Positions 15,000-64,000 of a stretch of 64,000 nucleotides of DNA are shown piece after piece. This stretch comes from Blasia pusilla (taxonomy: Eukaryota), in NCBI GenBank assembly GCA_050084515.1, contig CM114271.1, forward strand, positions 27,652,001 through 27,716,000, read 5' to 3'. The translations under genes were made by a program, and so were the position numbers. The notes beneath the pieces are model-generated. The model was not told the DNA's origin. It saw nothing but the letters and a program-made list of their open reading frames with translations, and did not search any database. How positions within the stretch are numbered: position 1 is the stretch's first letter; each line of letters opens with the position of its first letter.

Positions 15000-17557
15000 A
15001 GAAAATGTATAGTATAATGAAATTAACACCTACTTTGGATGCAAGTTTGAAGTAGTGACTATATAACATTTGCTTCTAGTGGCAACTTGGCATATACAAA
15101 TGTGAGTAGTGTAACATTCTTCATAAAATCTTTGAAGCAATATGTCACCTTGGTAAAGTTGGCTAGTGTTGAGCGAGGTGATGCTCACACGTGGTATTTG
15201 CATACTGAAGAGTTATAAATTTTGCTACTGAGAGAGGCAACATGTAATATGAGAATATCATTATGATCTTGCAACTAGTCCAATTTGCTGAAGGGCATTT
15301 AATACACTTCAAATGGGAGAAACGAAGTTTGTTCTTGATATGAAATAGAATTTGGATCGGATTGAAGTGATACAAAGGCTGCAATGGGATGAAAATGCTA
15401 AAATGGTGGCCTACAATAAGGAAGCCTCGACCAGATATACTAAAACAAAAGTATGTAGAAAAAATGATAAGTATACATTGCGAATAGATATTATCCATGG
15501 TGAATAGTAAGACTTGATTTCAATGTTTTGGTTTTTTAAAGCTTATTTTTTTCTATAATTGTTTGTCGGTTTTCTTAGTTCCTATTATGGTCAATGTAGG
15601 TTGAAATGGATATTTAGATGTACAACCATATCCAAATTGTTAACTTGGGCGTCCCAAAACCAGAGCAAGGATGTATTAATAATAATCACTACATATATGA
15701 AAGCTTGGGTGCATATGGAACTTTTGTATTTGAGTTTAGCAAAGAGAAGAAGAATTGTCAATTTGGGATAGCTCTTGATGGGATTAAAAAAATTTCCAGA
15801 AAATCTAACATATGGTCAAAATATTTAGTATTTTTGGTGAATTATACTTTGCATCTACGATTCTAAACCAAGAAGTTATTTTTGTGATAATATCTTTGAT
15901 TACACTTGGCAAAGAGAGTATTGATGGAAAAAATGTCAACACATTCCTACTTCATTTGTTATGAGAGTTTGAAGATTTATGCAAAGGAATCTTATTTCAT
16001 AATAAGTTTTACAAATTATGGCTATTGGAACTTTAGTTTGAGTCTTAATGTGCATATGGAATCATATTTTGATATGAGCACGATGGGAAGCATGGTTGTG
16101 GTATATGTGGACCATGAGTCAATTCAAATTTCTCTAAGTTTGTTAGAAATCCTAAATATGGTTATCCCCGTCGTTACCTCCCAAAAAACCATTCATGGAA
16201 GATTTGTAGATACATCACATATTTGAATGGTATTGAATAGCTTAGACAAACCAAAAAAAAAGGTCGTTGAATGGTCAAAGGATATAAACTTTATAATGAG
16301 AATGGAGTTTGATCAAGGGGACAAGAGTGAAAAAGATAAGCATTCTCTTTGATTTTTCTTATTGGACATTATACCTTCTTGTTTTCTCTTGAAAAAAAAA
16401 ATTAGAATGTACTCCAAAGTTTGATATAACTATTTTGTAGTAAAGGCATTTTAAAGTTCCTTTATCAATTTCCACCATCTTCTCATTTGGAATACAATAG
16501 ATGCTATGCACGATGAGAAGAACGAAACTAATAATTTGGTAAGGATTTTGTGGGGAGTTAAAGATACAATATAAGTGAGGAGAGATATGGAGGCTCGTGA
16601 ATTTTTTCTCATTTTGTATTGTACAATCACGTCCTACAAGGCCCTAGGGGTTCTTGAAACATGGTGTTTTTTATTATCTCCATATCGAGGAGATGAATGC
16701 AACTATATTCAAATTTGAACAAGTGAGCGCCAATTGGATATTGTGGGGATTTGCGCAAGCATGTGGTAAATCAAAAGATAACCTTTAAAATTGAATGCAA
16801 AAGTTTATAATTCAGAGATTTTTTTAAAACTCTACGAAGATATCAAAGATTGTGGTTCCTTATGTACAAATATTCCACTTCATTTAAGTTTGAATCTTAA
16901 ATGGAAATGGGATATTTAGTCATAAGGAATTACAATCTTCAAATCAAGTATGATATATTCATTGTGCATTTTTTCATCTATGAATTAAAGGGAGGAAAAA
17001 TTCCTCAATATTATCACTTAATTAAATGGAGCATGGAAAATGCACCTACGTCAATCGTGAGGTATGACATGTGAGAACGAGTGTGACTATACTTGGTGGC
17101 GACACTTCTTCAACATAATGATTTGCGGAGAAGTGCAAATGAGCTCTTAAAGGAGGCGTGGAGCTGAACTTATGCTCTAGAGCTAGATAGGATAGAGGTA
17201 CCATGTGCACTAATAGTTTAAACATTAGCACCCTTAGACATCATATCGATTGTGTAGTAGTATTCCCAAGAGGATGTACGTCTATTATATCTCTTGGGAA
17301 GGATTAATATTACTTTGGTTGAAGTGATGCACATCATAATGGGAGTACAATATTACTCATATGTTGAGAGGGATGAGATTGCACGAAGAGTCTTATTGCA
17401 CCATATGTCAAGGCTAGTCCAACAACATTGTAACTACAACTTTATGTTTGCTACTAGGGGATATTAACCTCCTTCGTGGTCGAATATTTTATGTTCAGGG
17501 GCACAGGATGTGGAAAGCATCATGAATAGGTAAAATTCCCTTGTTGGTGATAGGATT
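15000..17557 (+). mobile_element. Decayed CACTA/En-Spm transposase (Tnp2/Transposase_21) remnant #1
   Basis: Broken frames give EFSKEKKNCQFGIALDG..VFLVNY (~15730-15860) and IDAMHDEKNETNNLVRILWGVKDT..VRRDMEAR (~16497-16600). These resemble the Tnp2 motifs RNVRLGLATDG and DVMHIEKN. Boundaries approximate. Confidence 0.7.
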
Positions 17558-17994: not shown

Positions 17995-20900
17995 TGGTAT
18001 CAAAGCAATAGATTTTCCAGTAATTTGGTCTAGCGATCTAGTATGTTTGAGAAAATTCTTGAGAGATGGCTACTTCTTCTTCAGTTTGTGCTTACCCTCT
18101 TCCACTGGTGAAGAGAAGTTAGATGGGACTAACTATACATTGTGAAAGTTCAAAATGAGAACTATCCTCGAATCATTTAAGATTTGGGAGATGACCATAG
18201 AGGTCGATTCAAATCCACAAGCTACTTTGAGTTTTGCATGTTCATCTTCATCTAGTGATATCGATTGTGTTATATTGTTGGCGTGGAAACGTAGAAGCGT
18301 TGATGCTCTATATGCGGTTGTCACAAATATAACTGATTTTGTCATGACTCTCATTCAACATACAACCACTGTTGAGGCGTGGAACATTCTGAAGAATCAA
18401 CATGAAACCAGGAATGAGACTTAGATTCAGAATCTGAAGAATTAGCTTACGTGCAAGAATTTTTTTGAAGGAGAAAGCGCGAAGCAATTTTTTACGAAGA
18501 TCAAGAATCTTCAAGGTCAGATGGGTCCGTGGGAATTTCAAAGTCTAACAAAGATTTGGTACGCCGATGCATAAGGATTTTGCCTTCGAGGTATGACACT
18601 TTGGTCATTGTATTGAATACTTAAGTAAGACCCACGCCGCTTACTTTTGAACAATTTAGTGCAATGTTGATAGAAGAGGAAATGCGCTTCAAAGCAAGAG
18701 AGGGAAGTGATGGAGCATTTACTGCCAACGTACAGAGAGGTAGAAATAAGATTACAGTTCAAATTTCAAGAGGAAATCTCTAAAGTAAGCCTTCAAATGC
18801 CTTTATTATGGTAAGCTAGGTCATCTTATCAAAGATTGTAGAAAGAGGAGTCTGAAAATTCTGCAAAACTAGGAGAACATGAGATAGATGATTGGGTATC
18901 AATCGAAGAGTTTTGCATACAAGCAGACTATTCCACTAAGTCAAAGAGTGAAAATGCATGGGTGCTCAATACTAGAGCATCTAGGCATATGACCAACCAG
19001 AAGGATTGGTATAGATCCTTACAGCCTCCGTAGAAGCCCATCGTTGCTATTGTTGGGAATAATGCAAAATGCCACGTAGAAGGGAAAGGCAAAAAAATTT
19101 TAGTCTCACAAAAAAGAGATGAAAAGAAGTTAACTGATGTATTGTACTTAGCAGAGTTGAATTGCAATTTACTTTTACTAGAGCTAATGGATGTTGACCT
19201 ATATGGAAGGCAAGTGCTTTTGGAAATTTTTAAGTATGGCACAAGTTGGTTGAGAATGAGAGAGGAAAGAAGGTACATAAGCTTCGCACACATCGAGGAG
19301 GAGAATTCTTATTAAAATAATTCAAAAAATTATTTGGGAGAACATGGAATCAAGCGACAATTAACCTTGACACATACACCATAACAAAATGAAGTTGTTG
19401 AGCGCCGAAACTATACAATGGTGGAGATGGCAAGATGTATGATGAAAGCAAAAGGATTGACAAAAGGATTTTGGGCTAAAGTTGTTAATAATGTCGTTTA
19501 TATTCTAAATAGAAGTTCTACCAAGTGAGTGCAAGGCATGAGTTCTCATCAAGCATACTCAGGTAAGGTACCATCAGTCCAACACTTCAGGGCTTTTGGT
19601 AGTGAGTGTTTTGTACTTATTCCTAAAGCATCTAGGACCAAGGTGAAGTCCAAGAGCAGGAAGAGCATCTTTATAGGATATAGTGATGACTCTAAAGCTT
19701 GTCGCCTATGTCGTCATGAGGCAAAGAATATGCTTGTGATTCGTGATGTGGTGTTCCAAGAACAACCTCGTCAAGTGGCAGATATCAGTGGTCCGTCCAC
19801 ATTATCATCAAATGAAGAGATAACCCACCAGAGCACATCATCAATGTTTACACTATATCATCAAGAAGAAGAATTTGGTGATGATAACAAAAAGCATCCT
19901 ATTCTTCCACTACGGTTGTCATATCCTAAGTGGATAAAGTAGCTCTTGAATGGTAAGGATCCACCACTATCTGATGAAGTTGCTACACATCCAAGGAGAT
20001 CCAAGAGACCAAAGGAGTAGAATAGAGCTTCCACACATCTCGTCAACATGGCCTTGATGACAAAGGTCTTGAAGGTGGAAGAGCCATCATGCTTGGGTGA
20101 GGCCTTTGCTCATCCTAAATAGAGAGAGGCCATGTAGTTGGAGATGGACGTTATTCAAAGAAACGAAACTTGGAATTTGGTTGAGAAGCCAAAGGACAAG
20201 AATATAATACGCATGAAGTGGGTATACAATACCAAGTACAAGTTGGACGGTACATTGGATAAACTCAAAGCGAGGTTTTTGCACAAGGATGTTCACAGAT
20301 TGAAGGTTTTGATTACAACGAGACTTTTGCTCCTACTGCAAGGATGACAACCATACAAATTGTTCTAGTTATGGCGGGAATAAGACGTTGGCATGTATAC
20401 CACTATGATATAAAGTCTGAATGTAAGTCTCAACAAGGAGGTGTATGTATCTCAACCACCGGGTTTTGAGACACCCAAATGAGAAGAGAAAGTGTGTTTG
20501 CTTCATCGATCATTGGATGGGTTGAAGCAAGCCCAAAGGATATGGTATCAACGAATAGATATATTCTTCTGAGAGAGGGGTCTCATCAAGAGCCCATCAG
20601 AAGCAAATTTGTATGTGTACACATATGAGATAGAAATTTGTATCTCATATGCGAAGATGAGATGTATATGTTGATAGTCCTTTCTATGGATGATCTTATC
20701 ATCACATAAGACCACAATAAGAAAAAAGAGGAAAGGAGGGAAGTGTTGAAATTTGAATTTGAAATGTAAGATTTAGGTCTTTGGCACTACTTTATAGGCC
20801 TAGAGATTTGGCAACAGTCAGATTCTATTTTTCTATCCCAACAAAAGTATGCTAGAGAAATCTTGAAGGCATTTGGGATGACCGAGTATAAGGTAGTGGT

Positions 20901-21654
20901 CTTGCCAATGGAGATAGAGTTGAAACTCTCGATGGAGAATGTCTCACCATTGATAGGTGAGAAGTTATATAGAAAGCTTGTGGGCAATTTGATATTTTTA
21001 TGCAACACAAGACCAAACATTAGCTTTGTTGTAGAAGTGTTGAGTAGGTTCTCAACTAAGCCTAATGAGAATCATTGGAAGGCAGGGATGCATGTGTTCA
21101 AGTACATCAAAGGCACTATTGAGTATGACATCACCTATAGAGCATGGATTAAAATAACAACCTTTTGTCATTCAGATTGGGCAGGAGACTCACATCCTCA
21201 TAAATTTGTTTTGGATTATTGTTTCTTGGTGGGATCATGTGTGGTAACATGGGTCAGCAAGAAGCAACAAAGAGTGGCTCTTTCTTCTACCGAGGCAGGA
21301 TACGAGGCGGCTTGTTATGCTTCTTGTGAAGAAATATGGTTGAGATGGATATTGGAGGACATAGGAGAAGCACTAGAAAGTGCTACTATGATGTGGTATG
21401 ACAATTATCAAAGTTGCATTGCCATAGCACATAATTATGTGTTTCATGCTCGTAGAAAGCACAAAGATATCCAACATCAATTTTTTCGTGAGTTAATCCA
21501 GAGAGAGGTTTTGAAGCTAGTATATTGTCCAACAGAGGATATCCGTGCAGACATCTCTACCAAAGCCTTGAGCGGAGATTAACTTCAACAACATCTGAAG
21601 GGACTTGGCATCGGTCCAAGACAATAGTTCACATGAGACTGGATATTGAAGGGG

Positions 21655-22091: not shown

Positions 22092-25000
22092 GGATGGCCA
22101 TATGAGGTCATTCTTTGGGGGATGGGGAACTTGGTTTGCATGACCAAGATCGGCCATATTTTGGGGGATGTTACAAGTTGTTTGACACTTGTAGACTATG
22201 CATGCACATTCACTAGGGTATATTTTGGAGAATGTCCCATTCTTAGGTGATACTTGAGCACGAGTGAGGATAAGTGTGTATCAAGTGCGGTCATAGATAG
22301 AAACGGTAGTGATGTTGGATGTGACGAGTGTTGGATCATGCGCACATTGTCTACAATTGTGATGGAAAAACATGTTATCATCGTAAGTATAAAGGAAAGC
22401 TAGCTTACGATGGATTTGAGAGACCATAACTTCTCATATTGGATGCGGTCTTAGATCCATAAGGGTGATCTCACGTTGTTATTTGCGAGGATGCGATATC
22501 TTTGGTGTTGGCCAATGGGATGGGCCAAGAGAGGGTAATTTTTTCTATATTGATAAGTTTTTTGGCATCCCATGCTTTCTTTCTAAGTAGGGCAAGATAT
22601 GAAATAGAATGAGTAGGTACATATACTAGTGGAGCCCAAGGTTGACGATCAAGGGTGAGTCATGAGATTCTCTTCGAGCATGGTGATGGTGCCTATGATG
22701 GCATATGCATAACGTAATAAGTGTTGGATCATGCTAGATAGACATGTAAGTAAGATAGACATGGTCTATCTTACTTGGATGTTTGGTTATGGTTTAACTT
22801 AGTAAAGATGAATGACATCCACTTTGTAGCATAACATCCTTTGGGACGGGGAAGATACATGCTAAAGGGGTGATGATGATCATTATTGGAAATTTACAAT
22901 TTTCTAGTTATCGTCCCCCAACATGGGTCCACTTACAAGGGATGGTAAAACCCCTCTCCCCGATCAACTAGTGGTGTGATGCACTTGGTGGTGGACTCTT
23001 TGGCCTAATCGCATATGGAGAGCATATGCAACATGAATAACTAAGTCTATGGCGCCCACGCTATAGAGAACCTAGAAAACAAGTCATGATTGTGGCTCTA
23101 AGGAGGAAAGACTTTGGTGTGATCTACCAAAGTCAAGACATAGATTAAGTAATCGTGAGACTAGGAAGGGGGGAAAAACTAGCCCATAACTAATTTTAGG
23201 TACTTTCTTGACATTCCCCGCCAAGAAAGTTTTAAACCTTGGGACCAAGCATCAAGTCAAAGGCAAGAAGCAAGGAATACATGAGTAGTCTAAATGGGCG
23301 AGATGCCCCAAAATTAGTCATTAAACATGATGGCCAAAAAGACAACCATGAGAGGTCAAGTGAGGAGTTAAGACGTATGCTAGTCAAGAGACACTAAAAG
23401 CTCACATCCAAGCTCCGAAATGCATTGGGAGAACCGATAATTGAATAATCTATACAAAGCCTCTTCCAAGCCATCTGAATGAATTATTACTCAAACGCTG
23501 GTCCGCAAGTCGAGAACTGTATTTGGATTGAATGCAAAAATTAAGGGTTTGAGGGGAACATTGGGGAATGTGGGATTCCAATGGAGAACCCCAAAATTAC
23601 CTATAGGGGGGAAAACTCTCTCTCGCTACCCACAAAAGTCCTTGAACCAATAACGGATCTAGTTGTGTTTCGGGTTTGAGTTAAGAAACACATCTTAAGG
23701 AATTAGCCAACATGCTCTGGTATAGGCAAGTGATTTGGGGAGATTTTTCAAGGCTTGGGTAAGAGGCTACATAGAGAGATGATATGCTTTTGGGGAGACT
23801 TGACATGCTTAGTGTTTGGTAGTTTCTTGACCATCTATGGAACACATAATTGGTTTAGTCTTTGGGACTCAAGTATTTCCCTTGCAAAGTTCAAGGTTGA
23901 TAGTGCCTTAGGGAAAAGCTAGGAGAAGTAGAGATTGGACTCTACAATGGCACATACTCGAATTGGCAAAGAAAACCTCAAAATGTGCAACCAGATCTTA
24001 CAACTAACATGATGAGGGGGGTTTTTTTTAAAATTCTTTCCTTGATCATTAAAAATATTAATTCTTATCATTTTCTACCGCATATTCAGCTCCATATAAA
24101 AGATTTGCTTAATTATTGACCAACAAATTATTAATATATGTTTAACACATTAGGGCCAAAGATGCCTTATTACGTAGATATGTACCTCAAACCGCTTTTG
24201 GAGGAGTTATTCGCCTTGTGAGAGGGAGTTTGTGTCGTGGATACAAGCATCCACTACCTTGAAACATCAAGGGCCTCTAAATAATCAGATATTTTATTGT
24301 AGATAACCGTCACTCTCCATCTTGGATAGTTGTGCACCTCTCCTCTATTCATTCCTAACATGATCTAATTGTGAGTTTTGATTGTACATGGTTAGGTTAC
24401 ATATTAAGTTTGCAAGTTTCGGGAAAGTTAGCATCCCCAACATCTAGACTTTGGTTGGAGGTTATGTATTGAGGAGATTTGAGAACCACCATTTACGTGA
24501 GTGCGGAAAATTATTTGCCTTACAGCCATGAGGGTGAACCTCGTAGGAGCCAATGGATAATGATGATGGCCTTTATACTATGATGTACACAGATTGGTCA
24601 GTCTAGGAGGATGTGTGTGTAGGGATGGAATATTGCGTAATGGATTTGGAATCAAGCGGGATTCATTCCTCAACATATTGTCTTATTGAATGTGAGTAGT
24701 ATCCATTACGAGGTTATTTAGAAATTCAAATGCATGTGGTGACCTATGTTTGGGTGTGTACTTGTTGATGGAACTTCTAACATAATCTTGTGGATTGCCT
24801 TAAAACCATATGCATGTAGGTCGTGGATTGCGAGGATCCAATGAACATTGAGGGTAATATTATGCACTTATTGATGGACCAATTTTTGTCCAAAGTGTCA
24901 CATCTAAGTAGCCGATAGGCCGAGATCTATCGTGGATAGGGCGTAGGAGCCAACGGACTATCTTGAGTGTAACTTTGTCCCACAGTGTCGGATGAGGTTG

Positions 25001-28000
25001 AGGATAGGTCCATTGCGTCAAGAACGTCGTTTCTGACGACTTTCATGTTGAGGTCTTTTACAACCGGGTGACTTGTTGACCAAGTCACCTGCCCCTGGTA
25101 ACCTGTGCGCGCAGGTTACCAAGGGAAGGGCTATTTTTAGGGTTTGAGCCTTTTGGCTCTTCCCAACCTATATAAGAGAGGAAGATGGCTTTCCTAAGCC
25201 ATCTTTCTCATGTTGGGCCGTTGGAGCACCTCCCTTGTATGTGTGTGAGCTAGGACTAGGGTGCTAGCGTCCGGATTCCTTGATAGCACAGGGTGGACGA
25301 GGCTCGATATGCCGATGTAGATTGAGGAGTGGAGTTTTAGGCCGGGTGTGCCGTTTTTACTACTCTTTATTTTTACATGAGAAAGATGTCGGGGGTGGGA
25401 ATTCGTTGTTTTGCAGGTAGGCAAGCGAGTTGCCTTGGTCGGAGCCCCGGAGCGTGTGTGTGACGTTGTGTGTCATTTTTTCTGTTCGGAAGGCCGTGGG
25501 CGGAAGCGCTGCCCGTTTTTCTCAGATTTTTCTGGTGCGGATTGATGGGGGACAGCAGCCGAGTGTAGCGTGTGGTGGGGCGTCGGGTGTACGCAAGTGG
25601 AGGCGTCGAGAGAGAAGGAATAGGCAGGTTTGGGTCTTGCAACCGCCGGGGGGCTGTCAAGTAAAGGCGGCTAGAGTTAGGTCGCGAATTTTAGGGCATG
25701 GCGTGGACGGGCTGGGCTCGTGACGGGCGCAGACGGCGAGGGGCGCGGACGCCGCACCCCCCCCCGCATTTAGGGCCCAAGGGGCACGCATAGGGCCGCG
25801 GTCCAATTTCTTCCCCCCTCTCCAACGTGGTAGCACCGACGGCGGTCGGACAATTGTCGCATACGTGGTTGGCAGGACAGACGAGGTTAGTTGGGCGAAC
25901 GTGAGTTGAGATTTGCCGGACATGAGTGGGAGCCGACCAGGGTGAGTCGCGTTACATACATGATGTTTTGGGGCGCGACAGGGTTGCGAGAGTTTACGAT
26001 GGAGGGGCAGTGTGCATGATGCCGACGGGTTGTCCGCATCTGTTGATGGGAGGATCGATGTGTTGGTCGAGGGGAGTGTTATGTGGCGGAGATTGTCATA
26101 TCATGTGGAGGAGTGCATATTGACGGTGCAAAGTTGAGGGCGTGATCAGGTTACCCATTCGAGTCCCTTTTCCCGCACTTGTCGCGGTGTGATTGAGAGT
26201 CTTTGGGTATCAAGTAGTAGCCGGTGCTAGATGGGTGCGATGATGGTGACGAGTGTAGATTCTTTTCATGTGTAGCATGTTGGTGGATATCTGGGCGGTT
26301 GCCGAGTAGGGGTCGCGTGTATGACCCGAGAGTGTGTCGCTAGGTTAGGTGAGTCGGTTGGGAGGCTCATGGTGAGCCCGAGTGTTGAGCGTGCGTGAGG
26401 CCATGAATGTCATCACGGGATTGGCGTTAGCATAGGTGAGCTAGTGAGGCATGTGGGAGACTCGGTGAGTCCGAGTGCTTGAGCGGGGTGAGACAGGGTT
26501 TGTCATCACGGCGTTCTTCCAGGGTTCGGAAGAACGGGTAGTGCGAGCGATGGTAGTGTTGTGACACGAGTGGAGTGAGATACCGAGGGGTTACTAGTGA
26601 GGAGCTCTGCGACATCCATCCATCCCGGATCGTCATCATCATGGACATCGGGTCCGTGACGAGATCACCAACAGAGATGATGAGTACTTGGCGAGGAGAT
26701 TGCGACATGGGCCATCGGGGCATGCGTCGTTTTTCGGGTGCGATGGGCACCATCGACTTAGATGATTTCATCCAGGAGTTCGACACATGGTGCGACTTCC
26801 GGGAGATACGGACCCGACACGGTTCAACCCTTTCATGGCATGGAAGGGGTTGTTCCAAAGACTTGGAGGGTCCTCCGATGGATGACTACATGGAGTTTCG
26901 ATCACTATATTCAGTAGAGATCGATGCTTGGAGGATGTATTGGGCTCCAGGGTATGTGTCCACTAGTGGTCGCGAGGCATATGATGGGATTATGAGAGGA
27001 GAGAGACCCACACCATCAGCCCAGAGACTAGATGGAGAGGAGGGCAGTGAGACAGGCGATGTGGCAGAGACCTCTGGTGGTAGAGGGCCACCCAGCTTCA
27101 ACCCCACAGTGGAGTTCTTCCGACAGTTGGGGAAGAGCTACCAGGGCGTACGCACCGACAAGCTGAAGAGTCTATAGGATTTTCAGCGATGATCAGGTGA
27201 GAGTCTGAGAGAGGCATTCACATGCATGAGGAGGCTGATCATTGCTACGTTTGGAGTGACTGAGGCGCAGTCAGTCCAGTATTGGTACGGGGTTCTCGAC
27301 CGAGAACTACGGAGGAGAGTCCGAGATGCGGTGCTGATTCCCACAGCGGAGCCCACATTGAAGGTGGTCTTTGAGTTGTCTGAGCGTATTGAGCTCAACA
27401 TGAGTGAGGAGCAGGTAGTGACCGCTGGATTTTCTCGAGAGACGACGGGTCCACGAGCGGCGGTGACCCCACCGGTGCCACAGCGAGCACCGGTACCACG
27501 GGAGCGGGCCAGCGTGCCTAGAGAGCAGGGCGGGTACCGTGAGCCTATGAGGCAACGACCCGCACCTACATATGTTGCCCAGCAGGGACCGGTGTGGTCT
27601 TGTTGGGCGTGTGGAGGGGCCCATAGGCGAGAGGCGCCACAAAGCATGGGAGAGGACCACAGCGCCTCCGATTGCGAGAGCCACAGAGGATGGCCCCACC
27701 CAGCACCAGTGTGACCATTGCCACAGATATGGTCACACTAGGGATAGATGTTTTGACCTTTGCCGAGGGGCACGCGTAGGAGGTAGGCCGAGGCCTGGGG
27801 CGGCCGCCCAGGAGGAGGTCGGGAGTTCTTCTGGGCGTGGTGGTAGAGGACCACCACCGGCCAGAGGAGATGGAGCAGAGCACGAGCCGGCGCTTCTCTA
27901 ACGCATCGATTAGTTGGAGCAGGAGGATTGCGCCATGCGATGATGCGGCTTAGGAAGGCACGGAGTGCGGCGGCTAGTGTGACTCGATCTCTACCTCTTA

Positions 28001-29379
28001 CCTTGACCCGGTGAGGCGTCTCCAACATGGGATTCATGTGTAGTGCGGCCAGGTTGAGGCATTGCGATGGTGACTCGGGGTGTTGCGAGAGGCACCGAGC
28101 CATCGAGAGGTGGAGTTGAGATTGACCCACTAGAGGGGACCGATGGGCGGCGAGCCAGGGTTCCACGATCGTTCACATTGTCGGAGGCACTACACACACC
28201 ATCGATGGTGCCTCGGCGACCAGCGGTGCCTATAGTTCAGGCACCTACGTCGGCGTCATGAGGAGTTGGAGTGAAACTCCTATCCGGCTCAAGTGGAGTC
28301 GGTGTCGACTATAGTGTTGGAGGTGGCCACTAGAGTGAGTCGACTCGCTATTTTCCGCCTTAGAGTTGGCGGCGTTGGGAGTTGGACCGGTGAGGTGTTC
28401 CGGTTGGCGCCACGTTGTGTGAGCGTGGAGAGATGGCGCTTCTTGTTGAGAGGTAGTTGAGGAGGTGGTGGACTTGCCCTCGAGCGGTGCTTGGGGCGTT
28501 CCCACGAGTCATGGCATGCGGCGGTGGCGGTTGGTAGATATGCCACTCGACCGGCCATAGAGCGGCAAGATGGTGACACTGGAGTAGTGTTCTTGGATGT
28601 TTAGCGGAGTATTTCGCTTGGTTAGTCCGACGGGGACAAGTATACCCAGCCAGCGCGTCCTACTTGATTCGGGAGCGCAACCCTTGATGTTAGGGAAGGC
28701 GGCGTGTTTAGCGTTGGGGTTACGGAAGGCCGACATTGAGCCTTGTCCCTTCCAGATACAGACCTCGATTGGGGGCGTATCACCCACTCAGTATATGACT
28801 CGACAGGAGATTGTTGTGAGAGTCCAGCCAGAGCATGCGACGGATAGTGCTATGGTGCGCACACGTGCGATTACGACACCAGCTGAGTAAATGCGATGTG
28901 TTGGTGGGGAGTACAGTGTTATATCCCCTAGGATTCATCCTTGACTTCTGGGAGGAGACCGTTGCTTATCGGCCAGGATGGCGGTCAGGTGACGGTCGGA
29001 TGAGTCAGTTACCCGTGCAGTTTGCGGGACGAGGTGGTCGATCACGAGGCGAGTCTGTGACCACGTTGGCGGCTTTCACAAGTAGTGTTAGCTGGCCAGA
29101 GAGTTGTTGAGGGGAACGCACATGCGGAGGATGTTCCGAGAGCGGATAGTCCCACGGAGAGACATGCCATGGCGGGTGTCTCTTCCCATGTTAGCAATGC
29201 CTCTTCACCATTATGGGGTACGACTCGAGAGCTACAAAGGAGTGCCGACGACCTCGTGAGGCAGGCGTGGAGTCATGTTTTTATCCCAGAGCAGCGAGAG
29301 TCATGTGGCGATTGGGCTCTTGTAGTGGAGACGATGACCCCACTAGATATCACACCTGTTGTGTGGCAGTGCCCAGAGG

Positions 29380-31370
29380 AGGGTGTTAGGGTGTTAGATC
29401 TCTTCGGAGGGATTAGCACTGGATTGGTGGCCATATTGCAGGCGGGCATACGGGTGCATCAGTACCTTTATGTGGAGAGAGATGAGACCGCGCGGCGAGT
29501 ATCATTAAGTCATGTGGCGAGATTGGTCTAGAGGTATCCTGAGTTGTTGTCGGTATCTGCGATGCGGGGATACCAAAGATACGCCACCCGCCGACATATC
29601 TTTGGTGGGGCGCAGATCTGGATAGAGTTGGCACCATTCATTTGGTGATTCTTTGGATGGCCATGTCAGGGTCATTCATGAGCTGGCCGAGGATTTGGAT
29701 TGCAGGATCCGAGGTCAGGGATGTTTTGGGAGATGCTGCGAGTAGTATGACACTTGCAGCAGAGTCAGATATGTTCTCCAACGTATATTTTGGAGAACGT
29801 GCCGTTGTTGGGAGATACTCGTGCACGTGTGATGACGAGTGTACATCGGTGAGTCTGGTTGGGACCGGTGTGTTGTTAGATGGCGAGAGTTGGGTCACGT
29901 GCCCATCGTCCTCGATGGTATCGAGTTCGTCCATCGTGGTGGACGAACTGATACTATCGAGAAAATCTTGAAGTCGAGCCTACAATGAAGTCGAGAGCAC
30001 CACATCTCACGGTGGATGCTATTTTTGGACTCGGGCGTCGATCTCGGTGGTGACACGCGATGATAGACCACCGTTGGCCACGGCCAATAGGGTGGGGGAG
30101 TTGAGGGCAGCCTTACCTACGTTGGTGAGCTTCCCAGCATCCCATGCCTTTCGTCAAGGAGGGCCAGGCATGATTTGCGATGAGGTGACCGAAGTATTGG
30201 AGGAACCTACAGCAGATGAGCGCGAGCGCGCCATGGGGTTCACTACCGGTACTACGGCGGTGCCAGGGATGATTGAGGCATCACGGAGACAGGTGTTGGT
30301 GTCGTGCGCCTACTCTCCTTGAACGTTAATCTTGTTTGTTGCAGAATCGTGCGTTCAGTAGGTCACGCTCTCAGCGCTGATCTGCATCCAAACACGCACT
30401 TCGGTTAGTCGGGTCTTGGATCAATCAGCGGGATTACTTTTCGAGTTCTCATCTCGGACTCTCTCTTCAAGCTCAACCTTCCTAGTTTCGCGGTTTCCAA
30501 CACGGGCAAGTCTCGAAAGACTTGGGACAGACTTTCTGGTCAGTTCAAGAATCTGAAACGACGTTTCCCGCCTAGCGGTTCCAACTGTCCGATGAACATC
30601 CAACGAGTTCCTCACCAAGACTCGCACGAAGTGAATCTCGGGTTGGAATCCAAGTGTGGCATACAAAGTCCACTCCCTTGGATCAGGTTTGGGTTTGGGT
30701 TTCGCAAACTCCCGTTTCATCCCGTGCCTCTGAAACGCCGTTTGGCGCCCAAAGTGGGGTTTCGTTTCCCGAGACATCTCAAAGAAGGTACTCCCCTTAC
30801 TAGTACTTCTGGGGATCTCCGGGGGCCCCCTACATTTAGAGAAAGACACCCGGACCTCTCCAATTGGCCCTCAACCCGATTGCTCTCTGAATCGTTTTTG
30901 GCCAATATCTCAGTGTGTACTTATGTGTTTGCTGAGATCTTTGGTGCGTTGGAAGCGTCTCAAGATCAGCTTTCCAACGCGCCCTTACTTGTCCCGAACT
31001 CATCTCGGAGCTCAACGTTATGGTCCTAAACACAGTCAGATTCTCCCAAAAGCTAGCCGTGTTCCAAACTAGTTCTCACCTCTTTGGCAACCAACCTCCA
31101 AGACTCAACTCATCTCAAGTCTCGGCTCGCGTTTGGTCTAGGATTTCCTGGTCGTGACCACTAACGCATGAAACGCACAACTCTGTTCCACATTTCGTCT
31201 CTTAGGCTTTTCCAAGAGACTCTTCCAAACGCCTCTCCAAAGCGCAAACCTCGCGGCGTGAGTTCCTTTGAGTTTTGATGTTTTGCTTGGCGCGTATTTG
31301 GTGTTGTTTGGTTATGAGGGTCGTGAAAGTTGGGGCAGGCGATGGACCTCAATTGTCTCACATGGATAGT
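29380..31370 (+). pseudogene. DNMT3-like cytosine-5 DNA methyltransferase domain inside retrotransposon pol, interrupted by a solo LTR
   Basis: Motif I VLDLFGGISTGL (29391); II YVERD; IV GWPCQGHS (PC at 29661-29666); GLQDPRSGMFWE; VI YILENV (ENV 29793-29801); VIII VGSRAHRPR..WWTN (29889-29948); IX ERERAMGF (~30217); X RRQVL|GQAMDLNCL, rejoined after removing 30300-31333. Contains stops and frameshifts. Confidence 0.9.
30300..31328. mobile_element. Solo LTR (1029 bp) inserted in DNMT motif X
   Basis: Ends TGTCGTG..TCGTGAAA (decayed ..GACA). Perfect 5-bp TSD GTTGG at 30295-30299 and 31329-31333. Same family as 35301-36062 plus 37692-37915. Confidence 0.88.
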
Positions 31371-34300
31371 CAACCTAGGTATGGTTGAGCAGAGACGGAT
31401 GCGAGTGTCATCCATGCCGTCACGTCCACGAGTTGGACCACTGCCTACAGGGTCTGTACAGGCATTGGCTGGGGGCGAGACGAGGAGAGATAGGCACCCA
31501 TGGACTTCCTGGGACGTCGTTCGAGCAAAGAGTGCAAAGCCGGCTAGAGTAGCACATGTTCATTTTTCGGATGTGGAGCATGGTGTAGGAGGTCAGAGTG
31601 GAGTGGCTGTTGCGGAGGTGGCTAGGGTTGCCACATAGCAACCAAAGCCGGAGGTTGCGTCCTCTCCGAGTGAGGTCACGATGGAGACTTGGGGAGCCTG
31701 TGATAGGTCTCAAGTTGATAGGAGGAGAGCGACGGCGAGTTCATAGGTTTCTGAGAGGGCATGTCAGTTGTTTTGCCTTCAGTATGAGAGACTTGGGTAT
31801 TTGAAGGGTCAGAGATACGGATTGAGTTGGCTAGTGATACGCCGATCTTTCGTCGACCCTACTGAGGTATTCCGATATGGAACGAGCCTTGATTTAGAGC
31901 AGGAGTCGAGGACTTGTTGGAGGCGGGACTTGTGGAGTTATCACATGGGGAGTATGCATCGCCCTGCAGTCATGCGCGAAGAAGGATATGTATGGAAATT
32001 GGACGGATAGGCGGATGTGTGGAGATTACCGTCCTATCTATCGAGGAGTCTACCGTCGCTGCACGAGCAGTCGATCGGTATGCCATGCCTACTCTGAGGA
32101 GATCTTTGATGCGGTAGGGCATGCAAAGATCTTGAGTTTTTAGATCTCCGTGTTGGCTATCATCGACTTCCTATCAGGTTGGAGGACAGGAGAAGAGAGA
32201 CGTGCAGGGGATAGATCGGTTCGGGAGAGATTGCTTTATCGATGGCGGTTCTTACCATTTGGGTTGAAGAACGCGCTCATGGAGTTTCGAGAGAGTGATG
32301 GATAGGATTTTGGATGGCTTGGATTTTGTACGATGTTACATAGATGATATTCTTATCTTTAGTTCCACGGTTGAGGAGCATGAGCAACACTTGGAGGAGG
32401 TGTTTCGGCGATTGCAGTTACATGGACTGAAGTTACATCAGGCAAGTGCAGATTCTTTCGGAGCAGATTGAGTACTTGGGACACACCATATACCCGAGTG
32501 GGTTAGGCGTTCAGCAGAGACGAAGGTAGAGGCTATTGTGCGTAGATTCCACGCCCTATAGATGTGAGTCGAGTCCGAGCATTTCTTGGACTGGCGAACT
32601 TCTATCGACGGTATGTCAAGGGTTTTAGTGCGATTGCAAAGTCTTTGACCTTGTTGACGAGACTTGATCAGGTGTGGTTATGGGGAGATGATCAGGAGCG
32701 AGCATTTCAGGAGCTCAAGTACAGGTTGACGTCCTCACCCATTTTACAGAGACCGGCTAGGGGTCGCCCATTCGATTACATACAGTTGGAGCATGTTGGG
32801 TCTAGGAGCGTGCTTACTCGGAGGGATGACAAGGAGAGGGAGTTCGTTGTGGCTTACGAGTCGAGTCGATCGAACAACATTGCAGAGGCGAGAAATCTGG
32901 CTCCTACGAGGAGAGTGCTTGGATGCAAGTGTGAGCCGTGGCACATTTTAGGTGCTATTTATTTGGCAACCCTTTCACACTTATCATCGATCATCGGCCC
33001 GTTGAAGTGGTTGATGGAGTCCGACAAGCTTACGGGAAAGCTTGCCAGGTGGGCTCTATTACTACAGGAGTATGAGTTTCAGGTGGTTCATAGGCCAGGT
33101 CGGCTGAACCAGGATGCGGATGGGTTGAGCGTAGCCCATGTCCGAGTCAGAGAGACGACATAGGAGCTCGATGGCACAGAGAGAGTGATGAGGAGATGGT
33201 GCCCGGTTGGCATGCATCTACCTATCTTTGTTGGTTGAGTATGGTAGGTGATGACTCCAGTGGTGGGATTGGATGATGAGTCTTTGGATCAAGAGGTTAG
33301 TGAGGAGGCGACAGGTGGTCGTGATATCCATGACGACGTGGAGGTTGTGGAGTTCTTGCGCACTGGCGTCATTGCGAGTACAATGAGTGCTAGGGAGCGG
33401 GATCGGATCCTACAGAGAGCCAAGAGGTTTAGGTGGGAGGGGACTCACATTTTGCGGGTATGGGGAGATGGTAGGATACGAGTGGTACCTCATGCTTCCC
33501 AGCGAGCACGTGTAGTGCGACATGCCCATGAGGAGTTGGGACATTTCGGAGTAAAGCGTACTTACAGCTTACTCCAGGTTCAGTATTGATGGCGCGGCAT
33601 GCATACTGGGGTACAGCAGTTTGTGGCCAGATGTATGGTATGTGGTAGAGTGCGAGCATCCTTCAATCCTCCCACTCCACAGTTACATCCTTTGCCGATT
33701 ATGGGTTTAGGTTATTGGTGGAGTTTAGACTTTGCGGGACCTTTGCCATTGACAGGGCGTCATCATAGGTACGTGTTGGTCATGGTGGAGCATTTCTCCA
33801 AGTGGATTGAGTTGGTGGCACTACCAGACAAGGCGAGTGAGGGAACAACTTATGCGTTTCTAGATCGTGTGCTTAGTCACTTTGGTGCACCGGCGGAGGT
33901 ATTGATTGACCAGGGTATCGAGTTCATGGGAGAGTTTCAGGCCTTGTGTGATCAGGCGCTGATAGATCACCGCACCACGTCCAAGGATCATCCTGAGGCG
34001 GATGGATTGGCGGAGAGAGTGGTACAGACGGTGAAGAGAGGATTGCGCAAGTATGGCTTGCAGCGGGGACAGTTGAGGGAGTGGGACCTACAGTTGCCAT
34101 GGTTGGCTATGGGTTATCGCTTTAGTCGGCAGGCATCCTTGGCATCATTTTCACCGTACTTTTTGCTCTTTGGGAGAGATCCAGATTTACATGCAGCGAT
34201 TCGACGTGACATGGCGGAGGTGTTAGATCTTGATGATCCAGATGTGTGGGTGCAAGCATGTTCTCAGAGGGCAAAAGTTTTTCGTAGAGTTATGCCTATG

Positions 34301-35300
34301 CCTTTGAGAACTTAGCTATTGCCCAACATAGAGATACATTGAGGTACGCGACCATTCGTGGAGGAGGTTATCATCCAGGGATTAGGAGGTTTCATCCTGG
34401 AGATTACGTGTATTTACAGCAGGCGGCACCCACGACGCTATGTTATGTCTGACCCCCCCTCTTGATGTGGTTCCCACGGGACGATGGATGTGTCCGAGAT
34501 GTGTATAGGGTAGTAGGTCATGTTAGAGAGATGTGATATTTTCTATCTGGAGTTAGGGGGATCCAACAGCCAGCTAGGGGGGCGGTTGTGTGATCTCCAT
34601 GTATATGTATGAGTTCATTTTTGTACATGTGTGGATCGACCCGTGTGTGGGGAAGATCGGTGTTGTGTGGTGTAGATGTGATGAGCGATGTATGTTGTGT
34701 AGCGATATGCATGCGCACGACAAAAGAGACATGGACTCTCATAGTCGAGCGTGCGAGTGGATGGATGTGCATCCAAAGATATGGTTGGTTGGTGCAAGTG
34801 GCTTATGCACCCTCCCATTATCTTCGGGGAAGGCTGATGGGAGGATGTAGAGAAGGGTGGAGCAAGGTATTTTACTTGAGTAGACTAACTCAATTCGGAT
34901 GTTTGCACAATATGGTGTATATTTGTGATCAACCTTTCTAGATAATGACGTAAGCAATTGGGATAGGGGAATAAGGACCCACGATTCCATTGATTGATAT
35001 ATGATTTGCTACCCACATCCATGAATAATCCATAATGGATATGGGTAGCAATATCCATTAGTACCATTAGTGATTTGCACTAATGGTATTAGGTCTTTCA
35101 TATACGAGATGTCAACTTATTTGAAGTGCTTAAATAAGACCCTAAGTGTTCACGAGATCGCACAAAAGTAATTATATGTTTTTTTGATGTCTCTTTGGAT
35201 AATCATTGGTAGACGGTTATATATCAAGGAGAAATTCATTGAGGATTGCCCTCGTACGGATCAAGGTTAAGGTCATTTTGATTGTGACACACATGGAGAG

Positions 35301-36062
35301 TGTCGCGACCCTCATAACCAAACGAGTGTCAAGCGGAACATTCGAACGTTAGTGGGTTCACGCTAGGATGGTTGCGCTTTGGAGAGGTCTCTTGGAAGAG
35401 TCCAAGAGACAAAATGCACGAATAGAGTTGGTGCGTTTCATGCATTCAGGGTCGTGACCAAGAAACCTGGACCAAACATGAACTAAGACTTGTGATGAGT
35501 TGAGTCTAGGAAGGTTGGTTGCCAAAGAGGTGAGAACCAGATTTGGAACGCGACTAGTGTTTGGGGTTTTGAAGGTATTTTGGACCATAACAGTGAGTCT
35601 CAAGATGCATTTGGGACAAGTAAGATGGCGTTGGAAAGCTTATGCAAAGCTGATTCCAACGCACTAAAGATCTCACAAATGCACAAACAGAGGTTGAGAT
35701 ATTTGCCTAAAATAATTGTATAAGGAGTTGGGTTGAGGGCTAAAATGAAGGGCCCGACTATTAGGGGGAGGGTGGTGATTCCCACTAAGGGGGAGTGTCT
35801 CCAAGGATTCTTGGAACCCAAACACCACTTTGGGTGCCAAAGAGCGACTCAAAGGCATGGGATGGAACGTGAATTTGACCTTGGGACTCTAAACCCAAAC
35901 TTGATCCAAGGGAGTGGATTTCGGAAGCCACACTTGGATTCCAACCCGCGACTCCTTTTTGTGAGTCTTGTTTAGGAACTCATTGGAGATCCATCGGACA
36001 GTTGGAACTATAGGCGTGTAAACGCCGTTTGAGGTTCTTGAACCGACCATAAAGTCTGTCTC
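35301..36062. mobile_element. Solo LTR part A (same family as 30300-31328, opposite orientation)
   Basis: Starts TGTCGCGACCCTCATAACCAAAC and aligns by eye to the reverse complement of ~30523-31328. Confidence 0.85.
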
Positions 36063-37691
36063 ATCAAAGTGTGGATAGCAAGATGGTTTCTTTTCCGAAG
36101 AAGTCAAGGTTGACTTTAGATGCATCATGCAAAAATGAGAGTGAGACAAGGTTTGAATAAGTGAAAAGATAGACCAAGGTACAATCTCCTTGTTTTGTTG
36201 TTTGATTGTAAACCCACTTCATGGAACGATTGATGATGATTTTTTTAGGCAATTCTTATCACAGATCCTATAGCTAAACGTATGCCAATGCAAAACATCA
36301 GAATTCTAGTAGGCTCACACTAAGATGAAAGCATGTCAAAGTCTCTTGAATGAGACATGAGTTGTAGAAGCGATATGTGATCCTTGTTGGGCATCTCAAG
36401 TGATGATGTTCATAATCTAGTAGAACAAGACCAAATTTTAAGCAGAGACTTTAGAGGAGCTCAAGTCCCATGAGAGTTTGGCACCAAGGGGATTGCAAAG
36501 TGACTTGGAACTTGACTCAAAGTTTGGGGGCTCTCTGTGTTTAAGGTCATAACATCTAGAGTCTTGATGCACTTGGGATGAATAAGGTAGCATTAGAAAT
36601 ATTATGAGAAGATGATTCCATGCACTAAAAATCTAGTTAAGCGCATGAGTAGAGACTGAGAAACCACCCCTAACTATTAGAATGATATTTGGATTGAAGG
36701 CCATAGAGAGTGGCCCAAGAGGACTTTTCCAAAAGCTAGGGAGGGGGTGGAGATCTCTAAAACTATAGATAGGGGGGAGGGTCTCAAAGGGAGTTTGAGA
36801 CCCAAATCCCATCTTGGGGGACCGTAGGGGTGAACTAAGGGCATAGGATGGATCGAGAGGAATTGGGATCACAAAGTGTGTTTACGTCGTTTTAGATTCC
36901 TAGACTATCAAGGAAGTTTGTTACAAGTTTTGAAGGACTTGCTTATGTTGGGGAGTGAGGGATTAAGTCAATGTGTAATCCCGCTTAGATCATTTGAGTT
37001 TAATTGATAGCATGAGTTCAAAACTTGGGAGATGTAAGACTTGTTGATCCAAAAAGTGGCTAATGTGAATGTGTTTGGGTGTAGATCAGTAAGGAGAGTA
37101 TGACCTACTAAATGTAAGTTTCCAAAATATATGAGACCCATGTTCAAGAAGAATATGCGCATAATAACTATTTCACCATATATGCCTTGTGGCCTTTTCA
37201 CTCCATCTATCATTACAGGGTTGGTCTTTTAAGCTATTGTAGTGGGACATGTGTTTCTCTTTGGGTCGTACCAATCAAACTCATCTATCTTGCATAAGTT
37301 GTTCATAAGAACAAAAGAATGTGTATGGGAATGGCGTATGGATACTAATTATACACTTGTATATACCCCTCATGCTCTCTCATTTTCATCCTCATCAATG
37401 TCATCATCATCCATGATCTCATGTATCTTTTGCAATGGTGTGGGAATGTGAAGATATCCCACCAACTCGATTGTGTTGAACAAGGCCTAGCCTAGCATGT
37501 AGCCCTTAACCATACTTACCTCTACTTAGGCCTGGTTTAATTTTCATTCAACCCTTTGTTGGAAAATTTATGTTCCAAAAAATACTTCCTTCTATAATGC
37601 ACAAGTTTGGTTCCGCTATGCCAACCTCTCTAACCAAATGGATGAGCCAATGAGTTTGCTCAATTATCAATGAGGGTGGAAAGACTCTCCC

Positions 37692-37915
37692 TGTCGTGCG
37701 CCTACGTACTCTCCTTGAATGTAAACCTTTAGTGTTGCGGAAGGGTGCGTTTAGTAGGATACGCTCTCAATGTTGATCTGCACCCAAACACGCACTCACA
37801 TTATTCGGGTCTGTGTCAATCAACGCTCTAACTTTTGGAGTTCTTGACTCAGCCTCTCATCAAACTTACTCTTTCTAGTTCCTGGATCTACAACACGTGA
37901 AAGTCTCTCAAGACT
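37692..37915. mobile_element. Solo LTR part B, displaced and inverted relative to part A
   Basis: TGTCGTGCGCCTAC..AAGACT matches 30300-~30522, exactly the part missing from part A. Confidence 0.85.
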
Positions 37916-62074: not shown

Positions 62075-64000
62075 TGTCATGACCATACGGATTATGTCGT
62101 AGAGTATAGTGTGCTAGTAGAGGCCATACCTTTTGTAGGGCCGTAGTGTCTAGGTAGAGATGCGGTTTCATACATAGGGTTGGGGGTTACTTAGTTGAGG
62201 ATGACTTTTCCAATAGGGCCTACTCTTAGGTTGGAGGATATAGTGTGGAGTGCATTCAAAGAACAGTTAGTTCTTTGAGTTGAGCTTGTTGCGTTGGGAG
62301 TTAGCCTTGGTAGTGAATAGAGCTCTTGGCTATGGTGGTTCCCGCAAGCTTCAACTTGGATTCTTCCATCATGGAGTGGGTTTGGATCGATTGTATGTGA
62401 TTCTATACGTGTTTTATGACAGTAGGTCTTTCACGGATTTCACTCAAAGAAGTGGAGTAGATCGATGGTAGCTTCGATCGTGGATCAGTAGGATCTGGTT
62501 AGGGCTGATTGTGTACTCAGCCGTGGATGTTTGTGGCTTGTGGCATATGTTGGAGGTGGGAATCTGGTGCGTGGTTGGCTTGGAAAGAAGCACCTTGCTG
62601 AGAGTTTTCCAACGCGCTTTAGATCGCCGGATTTCGTCAAGGGAGTTGGAAGTTATCAAGGATTGAAGATTCTGGTTCGTGTTTGACGGTTTTTTGATGT
62701 GGAGAGCTTGGAATGCGGAAGCTCTGTTAAAGTTCATCGAGATCGGGTGAGAGGTTCCTGTTGCTACGTGTGTTGTGATCTCATATGAAGCTATCTGCTT
62801 GAGTGTGTGGAGCGTTGCGGATTTGTGTGTGCATGAATCTGGGCGGAAGCGCTGTCGGATTTGCGATTTTGGAGGTGTATGGACAACAAGTTTGTCTGAT
62901 TTTTAGCTCGGAGTACAGGGCTCGGTTGTAGCTGATTTTTTGTGGAGAGATAGCTATGGTGGCCAATTGAATTAAATTTTGGTTGAGGATTTTTGGAGTA
63001 ATTGCTGATCGAAATTTCGTGGACTAGCTCAAGGTCTAGCTATGGTGGACAACACATTGGAGGGGCTGGTTGGTTGGTGATTCGTCCGTTGTTGGAGATG
63101 CCTATCTCGTTAGGGGCGCCCTGGTTGGGCCTCTCTCCATAGCAAAGCGTGGCATGTCTCGAGCATTTCTTGGCGTTTTGAGGCTTTGAGGCAACTCGAG
63201 GCAACTCATGGTAGCTCGGGGCGAGTGGGCGTGGGAGGTGGAGTAAGGAGCAAGGAGCAAGGAGCAAGCAAGCAAGCTTGCTGCTTGCTCCTTGCTTGGG
63301 TGCGAGTGCGACTAGCACGTCATCGACCAGCGGCGGAGTAGCTATTGCGTTAGAATTGTGTGGTGGGTTCTATGGATTCAGGGGGCGCCACGTTTGGTGG
63401 ATTGTGTTACCTTGATTTCCATTTGTGATTGGAGGGTTGTCGTTGGACTTCTTGTGTTTGGATCCCCTCCATCGTTGTTTCTTGCTTGCGCGCCCATTGT
63501 TAGAGTTGACGCTGATTTCCAGAGTAGTGTTACTCTTGTGTGCTACTGGTAGTGAGGTTGGAGTGATGACCAGTAGACCGTGGGAGGCTTCTTGTGGTGA
63601 TGACATGTTAGGTTACCTACACCCATAGCTAGTAGAGCTAGAATAGTACAGCGACATCGACGTCACTTGGTTACTTAGTGGTGGTGATTTGGTGGTGGTG
63701 CGGCATTGGCGTTGGTCATCACGGAGCTGTCTGGTGGTCTGGTTGGGGACCGTGGTGCGGACAGTGGTGGTTTTACACAGAATGGATTGAGGTATCGGCT
63801 ACCTTTTCCACTTCCGACGGTTGATGAAGAGGAGGACGAGGGTATTTCAAACACCGAGTCTTCTACGTTTTTATCGAGTGTTACAGCTCCATTGATTTGG
63901 GACATGGATGGGATATATGGGGCCATGAAGGGCCCACGACGATACTCGGGTGCAGTGAGCACCATTGGGTCAGAGGACTTCATTCATGAGTTTGATACGT
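62075..64000 (+). mobile_element. 5' end of a second Gypsy element related to the DNMT-bearing element (runs off the window)
   Basis: Putative LTR 62075-63605 with inverted termini TGTCATGACC..GGTGATGACA. At 63925-64000, MKGPRRYSGAVSTIGSEDFIHEFDT matches GMRRFSGAMGTIDLDDFIQEFDT at ~26720-26790. Confidence 0.75.

Follow-up and report, generated by a model that had tools for sequence, protein, structure and literature searches.

The stretch of DNA analysed here (the window) spans 64,000 nucleotides of contig CM114271.1 of the bryophyte Blasia pusilla. It contains a DNA methyltransferase (DNMT) domain among the remains of a Ty3/gypsy retrotransposon. The domain is very probably a C5 methyltransferase of the DNMT3 type that belonged to an element with the order gag, protease, DNMT, reverse transcriptase (RT), RNase H and integrase, a member of an old green-algal and bryophyte family whose copy in the window is a pseudogene. 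An earlier note, made from the letters of the stretch, had described a captured, DNMT3-like methyltransferase with a non-permuted order of motifs.

That the stretch is a C5 cytosine methyltransferase domain is confirmed. All of the motif strings named in the earlier note were located on the forward strand at 29391-31360 in a three-frame translation of 29200-31500. They follow one another in the order I, IV, VI, VIII, IX, X, which is non-permuted:

start 29391, forward strand, frame 29202: motif I, VLDLFGGISTGL
start 29655, forward strand, frame 29202: motif IV, GWPCQGHS (PC)
near 29790, forward strand, frame 29202: motif VI, YILENV
near 29895-29948, forward strand, frame 29202: motif VIII, SRAHRPR...WWTN
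end 30298, forward strand, frame 29201: motif IX, ERERAMGFTTGTT, and RRQVL
start 31333, forward strand, frame 29200: second half of motif X, GQAMDLNCLTW

The counterparts that the note had given for DNMT3A (VLSLFDGIATGL, AHRARYFWGN, EMERVFGF and RQRLLGRSW) were found in the HMMER alignments with that protein. Pfam PF00145 (C5 methylase) was matched with E 2.3e-7 (31 bits, cut-off 22) and is the sole Pfam match in 29202-30100; PWWP, ADD or other companion domains were not identified by Pfam in this interval, and 28820-29110 gave no Pfam match. The strength of these matches is far above chance, as is that to DNMT3A (E 7.5e-6 in a single-sequence phmmer search of solved structures) and to 291 library proteins with E<=1e-10. 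Motifs I and IV are 88 residues apart, which leaves no space for a chromodomain, and about 95 residues lie between motifs VIII and IX. These distances, together with PF00145 as the only Pfam match, agree with the earlier statement that a chromodomain and a long target-recognition region are lacking.

Comparison with solved structures ranks DNMT3 first. In the phmmer search with the window sequence, DNMT3A was followed by DNMT3B (E about 7e-4), DRM (E 0.038) and M.HhaI (E 0.05). A profile built from 24 intact natural relatives and searched against solved structures gave 89.1 bits for DNMT3A (E 2.6e-24; one alignment covers motifs I-VIII and another IX-X), 83.1 bits for DNMT3C and 82 bits for DNMT3B. 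M.HhaI reached 36.6 bits and DNMT2 about 16 bits; apart from these and DRM, no family was listed at E<=10. Structure prediction, which had been suggested as a check against DNMT3A, points the same way. P0350 has the closest domain that is fully open, and its AlphaFold model (mean pLDDT, a per-residue confidence measure, of 84) was searched with Foldseek; all 34 of the matches listed for ranks 1-50 were DNMT3A, DNMT3B or DNMT3C, with a best E of 3e-18 and TM (structural similarity) scores of 0.74-0.83 on catalytic-domain chains. On this ranking of profiles and folds the predicted assignment to DNMT3-like enzymes is well supported, with a modest margin over the best prokaryotic enzymes.

There is very little to suggest a fragment of a DRM-type or CMT/MET1-type plant methylase. 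In DRM, motifs VI-X precede I-V; CMT and MET1, of the DNMT1 lineage, have a chromodomain within the catalytic domain, BAH domains and a long target-recognition region. DRM chains are the next-best eukaryotic matches to the profile (tobacco DRM 47.8 bits, AtDRM2 38.5 bits), but motif IV stands at the C-terminal end of the chain in the best DRM stretch of both, and tobacco DRM aligns from motif I there. The DRM alignment therefore has the permuted layout, whereas that of DNMT3A is collinear, and the argument that an order from I to X excludes DRM holds. The 88 residues between motifs I and IV are too few for a chromodomain, and no chain of DNMT1, CMT or DNMT5 was found at E<=10 in the profile search of solved structures.

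Alternatively, the methyltransferase may descend from a C5 methylase of bacteria or phages, or from a eukaryotic lineage other than DNMT3, such as the ChloroDNMT lineage named in PMC12344493, with its DNMT3 likeness due to shared C5 ancestry. Pattern scans of prokaryotes and viruses gave 49 and 80 loci, and 126 genuine loci were scored with a copy of the profile rebuilt locally. Among them, the top frames from prokaryotes or phages (L143, L082) reach up to 71.9 bits, about 17 bits below DNMT3A at 89. Look-alikes from a protein language model fall into clusters with the generic label 'C-5 methylase'; one is streptophyte, and two, at 0.95-0.96, are dominated by phages. However, the alignment of DNMT3A spans the entire domain, motifs IX-X among the rest, whereas prokaryotic matches score mostly from the motif IV-VI block, and the Foldseek matches listed are all DNMT3. 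In published trees, the DNMTs of streptophyte retrotransposons fall within DNMT3 (PMC5890265 and PMC12344493). The strong 'bacterial' loci L130-L132, which score 460-548 bits with the rebuilt profile, encode gypsy polyproteins with this DNMT and lie on short contigs that belong to metagenome bins. We consider such an origin improbable, and the tie to bacterial or viral C5 methyltransferases that the earlier note had allowed for is unlikely. The loci L130, L131 and L132 are filed under Synechococcales, Minisyncoccia and Cyanobium metagenome bins and have frames of 1162-2152 aa; their contigs are probably eukaryotic and misbinned into bacterial genomes.

The DNMT lies in the reading direction of Pol, between the protease and the RT of a Ty3/gypsy element (copy 1). 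Its parts were delimited largely with L040, a 6810-bp metagenome contig whose near-intact element belongs to the bryophyte clade (a single frame of 2163 codons, two stops):

26716..28255, forward strand: gag region, with a zinc-knuckle-like CX2CX4HX4C near 27690 (tblastn, L040 residues 108-578)
28609..29098, forward strand: aspartic protease region with an LLDSGA motif (L040 residues 719-882)
29124..30047, forward strand: DNMT motifs I to VIII (translation, Pfam, phmmer against solved structures, tblastn including L040)
30032..30298, forward strand: DNMT target-recognition stretch, motif IX and first half of motif X (tblastn with P0368, P0378 and P0417, 57-66% identity; L040 residues 1201-1283)
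30300..31328, no strand assigned: foreign insertion of 1029 bp that splits motif X, with a 5-bp target duplication GTTGG
31330..31536, forward strand: DNMT end (second half of motif X, GQAMDLNCLTW) and linker (translation, alignment to relatives, L040)
31694..34306, forward strand: RT, RNase H and integrase, with YIDDIL near 32330 and several frame changes (P0028 residues 1412-2163, L040 residues 1415-2163)

The gag region gave no Pfam match at E<=0.01, and residues 53-251 of the Closterium protein P0155 match it at 27100-27696. The protease region is matched at 28895-29095 by P0021, which has Pfam protease domains. Integrase_H2C2 (33248-33589) and the integrase core rve (33590-34315) were found above the Pfam cut-off, and RT_RNaseH_2 and RT_RNaseH at 32546-33163 each fall within 1 bit below their curated cut-offs. 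Seven DNMT polyproteins of relatives, four of them with RT on the same protein, align to 27100-34306, where their matches run in the order gag, protease, DNMT, RT, RNase H, integrase. The polyprotein of L040 is collinear with the window from 26716 to 33889.

This collinearity bears out the term 'captured' and makes it most improbable that a cellular DNMT3 gene of the host was broken by neighbouring transposon insertions. A broken host gene would be consistent with the insertion that splits the domain and with the failure to find terminal repeats of the element in the window. Against it, the domain shares its strand with regions for gag, protease, RT, RNase H and integrase that relatives encode as single polyproteins, three copies of the element occur in 64 kb and the copy number in the species is very high, and companion domains such as PWWP or ADD were not identified in the stretch by Pfam. 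Cellular DNMT3 enzymes are accompanied by PWWP and ADD domains in animals and by a domain of unknown function in land plants.

The nearest relatives of the domain are likewise all within gypsy polyproteins, as judged from their domain predictions. A HMMER scan across 1.84 billion representative proteins recovered 1581 matches to the domain at E<=1e-3, including the 291 mentioned above. We scanned with Pfam the 33 hits of at least 500 aa from the first 70 of 150 listed: 22 have an RT, RNase H, integrase or protease domain, eight have the methylase alone and three have no domain. PWWP, ADD, BAH, chromo or UBA domains were found in none of these 33 long relatives. The order seen in the window, with the DNMT before the RT, occurs in 9 of 91 relatives with a complete domain, and in about 53 of the 91 the DNMT follows RNase H and precedes integrase, in many cases with a PHD finger at the C-terminus; the others are too short to show an order.

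Trees of the transposon-type relatives, made quickly with IQ-TREE and supported by the Shimodaira-Hasegawa-like approximate likelihood ratio test (SH-aLRT), place the window inside a clade with the DNMT before the RT (SH-aLRT 99 in a tree of 92 rows). A tree of 53 rows groups it with sequences of Calypogeia fissa, Marchantia polymorpha and Sphagnum tenellum, in a clade of 18 rows (SH-aLRT 100). The highest identity to the window domain is that of P0368 (63% over 325 columns). Bryophyte hosts among the closest matches are Marchantia polymorpha, M. paleacea, Sphagnum tenellum and Calypogeia fissa, the last with a match of 56% identity that covers 93% of the query. Their sequences sit on contigs of about 25 Mb, at chromosome scale, in Calypogeia and Sphagnum, and of 89 kb to 5 Mb in Marchantia. 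Named algal hosts are Closterium spp., Mesostigma viride, Scenedesmus sp. and Monoraphidium neglectum. Together these predicted relatives make up an old group of methyltransferase-bearing gypsy elements in green algae and bryophytes.

Two features of the relatives were noted in passing. Chlorophyte-type relatives (P0008, P0010, P0030, P0046, P0056, P0057, P0068 and P0070 among them) show another order, which is the more common of the two: RT, RNase H, DNMT, integrase and PHD finger. The branch that divides it from the protease-DNMT-RT type has an SH-aLRT of 99. In 50 of 91 intact relatives, a glutamate replaces the proline that normally precedes the catalytic cysteine of motif IV, which then reads GWECQ; GWPCQ occurs in 28 of the 91, and also in the window and the bryophyte clade.

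The copy in the window is a pseudogene, a dead fossil of the element. Lesions were mapped by local translation and by alignment to the closest natural relatives P0368, P0378 and P0417 (54-66% identity). Six in-frame stops were identified, at 29529, 29679, 29748, 29850, 29877 and 29949. There are at least four frameshifts, three within about 29575-29655 and one more near 30040, and motif VIII holds an extra stretch of 18 nt. The foreign insertion of 1029 bp is flanked by the duplicated GTTGG at 30295-30299 and 31329-31333. With six stops, at least four frameshifts and this insertion, the window copy cannot act as a methyltransferase. The earlier description of the PC and ENV codons as intact is right for those catalytic codons themselves and wrong for the reading frame around them; the frame is open in the natural relatives P0350 and P0290.

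Evidence for the foreign nature of the insertion comes from copies that lack it. The empty-site junction (30294>31329, five letters ambiguous) was found in two DNA contigs of run X2 and in three RNA reads, the second DNMT copy in the window has no such insertion, and it was matched by none of the 80 related metagenome loci. The DNMT has no introns, and this insertion, which copy 2 and other copies in the species lack, is its sole interruption. Intron splicing across the gap between RRQVL and GQAM was considered and is excluded by the 5-bp duplication and the empty sites in other copies. RNA first mates over the insertion lie mostly on the opposite strand relative to the rest of the element; the insertion is transcribed from the strand opposite to the element. 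It contains no tRNA and no Rfam family. Related sequence occurs elsewhere in the window at 35358-36063 (inverted) and 37692-37915 (direct).

The element family is high-copy and transcribed in the host species. From run X1, 115182 contig pieces fall on 26500-34400 at 85% likeness, all degrees of identity included. RNA depth in two runs is 2-13 over most bins from gag to DNMT (two bins are lower) and 20-87 from RT to integrase. Almost all RNA first mates are on the minus strand, which indicates sense transcripts if the library is of the usual stranded type, as we assume. Most RNA reads are less than 95% identical to the window, and thus derive from other copies rather than from this one.

Selection on the DNMT was estimated from 80 related metagenome loci, of which 46 were kept (length a multiple of three, at least 1050 nt, at most 8 stops) and 34 dropped. 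The ratio of nonsynonymous to synonymous divergence (dN/dS) was calculated for 1035 pairs by the Nei-Gojobori method with stop codons masked. At dS of about 1.8 it is 0.19 (86 pairs, each with L040 or L053), and four further pairs above dS 0.5 likewise involve L040 or L053. Those two loci form a subfamily far from the other 44 (dS about 1.8). For the window against the 46 loci the proportion of nonsynonymous differences (pN) is 0.27-0.32 and that of synonymous differences (pS) is 0.70-0.76; pS is saturated, so that dN/dS is at most about 0.2, the window's own decay included. Purifying selection on the DNMT across copies, which the earlier note had named as a check, is thus seen between lineages (about 0.2 or less) and is weaker among recent copies. 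The values between lineages run counter to the lack of purifying selection that the note had named as grounds for refutation. In our reading the DNMT may be kept by selection along lineages of active elements while single insertions decay. Purifying selection between lineages would mean that the element lineage needs the DNMT domain.

Several points weigh against the interpretation given at the outset. Repeat searches of the window found no long terminal repeats or other terminal repeats flanking copy 1 that would mark the ends of the element. A DNMT stretch free of stops and frameshifts was found in only two of the 80 related metagenome loci (L004 and L015), and recent copies have dN/dS of 0.53-0.86 (936 pairs at dS 0.05-0.5). 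On these two counts most of the family looks dead. The trees carry SH-aLRT as their only support and include transposon-type relatives without a cellular DNMT outgroup. No Klebsormidium protein was among the named hits, with proteins of 448-1202 aa never searched with names. No gypsy-borne DNMT is known to be catalytically active, and the Klebsormidium domain gave an inconclusive result when assayed in yeast (PMC5890265).

A retrotransposon-borne DNMT3 is of a kind known since 2018 from Klebsormidium nitens (PMC5890265), and the window copy is a fossil of it. There, the gypsy Pol carries a DNMT3-type domain that is non-permuted and intronless, with Ka/Ks <0.2. Compared by description only, the two are alike in having such a domain in gypsy Pol with key residues kept. 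They differ in that the host here is a bryophyte rather than a charophyte alga and the window copy is dead; the DIRS-like repeat layout reported for KnitGypsy-Dnmt3 was not found in the window. The SymbioDIRS-Dnmt3 elements of Symbiodinium share a DNMT3-type domain in a retrotransposon Pol, but they are DIRS elements with a tyrosine recombinase, occur in a dinoflagellate host and were acquired independently. According to the 2018 study, DIRS-borne DNMT3 domains of Symbiodinium methylated CG de novo in yeast, and the LINE- and gypsy-borne domains assayed there gave no methylation (PMC5890265). A 2025 survey likewise records retrotransposon DNMT3s from dinoflagellates and streptophytes (PMC12344493).

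Green-algal gypsy elements, for which 'pol' KAF8056149.1 of Scenedesmus sp. PABB004 and MNEG_11595 of Monoraphidium neglectum are examples, carry the same DNMT family, with 32-41% identity to the window or to P0028, on the sister side of the tree. In them the DNMT comes after RNase H, a C-terminal PHD finger is present and motif IV is mostly GWECQ rather than GWPCQ. The cellular enzymes DNMT3A, DNMT3B and DNMT3C (2qrv, 6w89, 6u8p, 8tci) are the best profile and fold matches and have the same motif order and a short target-recognition stretch. Their identity to the window domain is about 20%, and the latter is without PWWP or ADD and is flanked by protease and RT. Plant DRM (4onj, 7l4c) belongs to the same wider DNMT3 lineage but is circularly permuted, unlike the domain in the window.

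The literature found on methyltransferase-bearing gypsy elements consists of PMC5890265, a mention in PMC12344493 and a review (PMC6338049). The species table of the 2018 survey includes Physcomitrella as the sole bryophyte, Selaginella and two grasses, and is without a liverwort, Sphagnum or Closterium (PMC5890265 supplement). No report of methyltransferase gypsy elements in bryophytes, or of the order RNase H, DNMT, integrase in chlorophytes, was identified in the literature searched, outside of which lay subscription journals. The bryophyte host range, the two domain orders and the spread of the family over green plants seem to go beyond that literature.

In an intact element, the DNMT domain would be translated as part of Pol, by analogy with the elements of de Mendoza et al. 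(2018). It might then methylate CG sites de novo on the new DNA copy of the element or in its surroundings, and such methylation could alter how the host silencing machinery treats the element. Retrotransposons with a de novo DNA methyltransferase of their own reverse the usual view of methylation as a host weapon against transposons, and the plant cases described so far are confined to the alga Klebsormidium. A broader proposal, which we offer tentatively, is that methyltransferase gypsy elements were not lost before land plants: an ancient green-plant lineage with two domain orders would persist in bryophytes, high-copy and transcribed here, and some copies might still encode a working de novo methyltransferase, with a share in the methylation of the element or the host genome. 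Bryophytes, which offer good genetics, are a possible system for testing the role of a transposon-borne DNMT3, given that the nearest relatives sit on contigs of Calypogeia, Sphagnum and Marchantia and that the family is abundant and transcribed in the host.

Two further copies of the element were identified in the window:

17129..17512, forward strand: second DNMT copy, motif I region, older and A+T-rich, cut off from the remainder by a copia element
22092..22799, forward strand: remainder of the second DNMT copy, motifs IV to X, with many stops and without the 1029-bp insertion (alignment including L040)
63760..63996, forward strand: start of a third element copy, gag N-terminal region (L040 residues 49-130, E 9e-14), which runs off the window

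Copies 1 and 2 are about 60% identical in nucleotides. Copy 1 has G or C where copy 2 has A or T at 191 places, and the reverse holds at 70 places. Reading frames of the copia element inside the second copy lie at 19529-19939 and 20770-21579.

The 1029-bp insertion is one piece of an unclassified repeat of about 1 kb that is present in several pieces and orientations (30300-31328, 35358-36063, 36884-37165 and 37692-37915) and is transcribed. RNA reads stack on a 70-nt core of this repeat at 30711-30780, with flanks that are unlike. The ratio of observed to expected CpG is about 0.8 in element copy 1 and about 0.5 in the old copy. It is very low in long single-exon frames of the host, at 0.24 in 1970-4108 and 0.39 in 53809-54834, both on the reverse strand. 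The latter encodes a host metallophosphatase whose likenesses fit a bryophyte host, with identities of 67% to Calypogeia, 66% to Marchantia, 59% to the moss Ceratodon and 58% to Chara.

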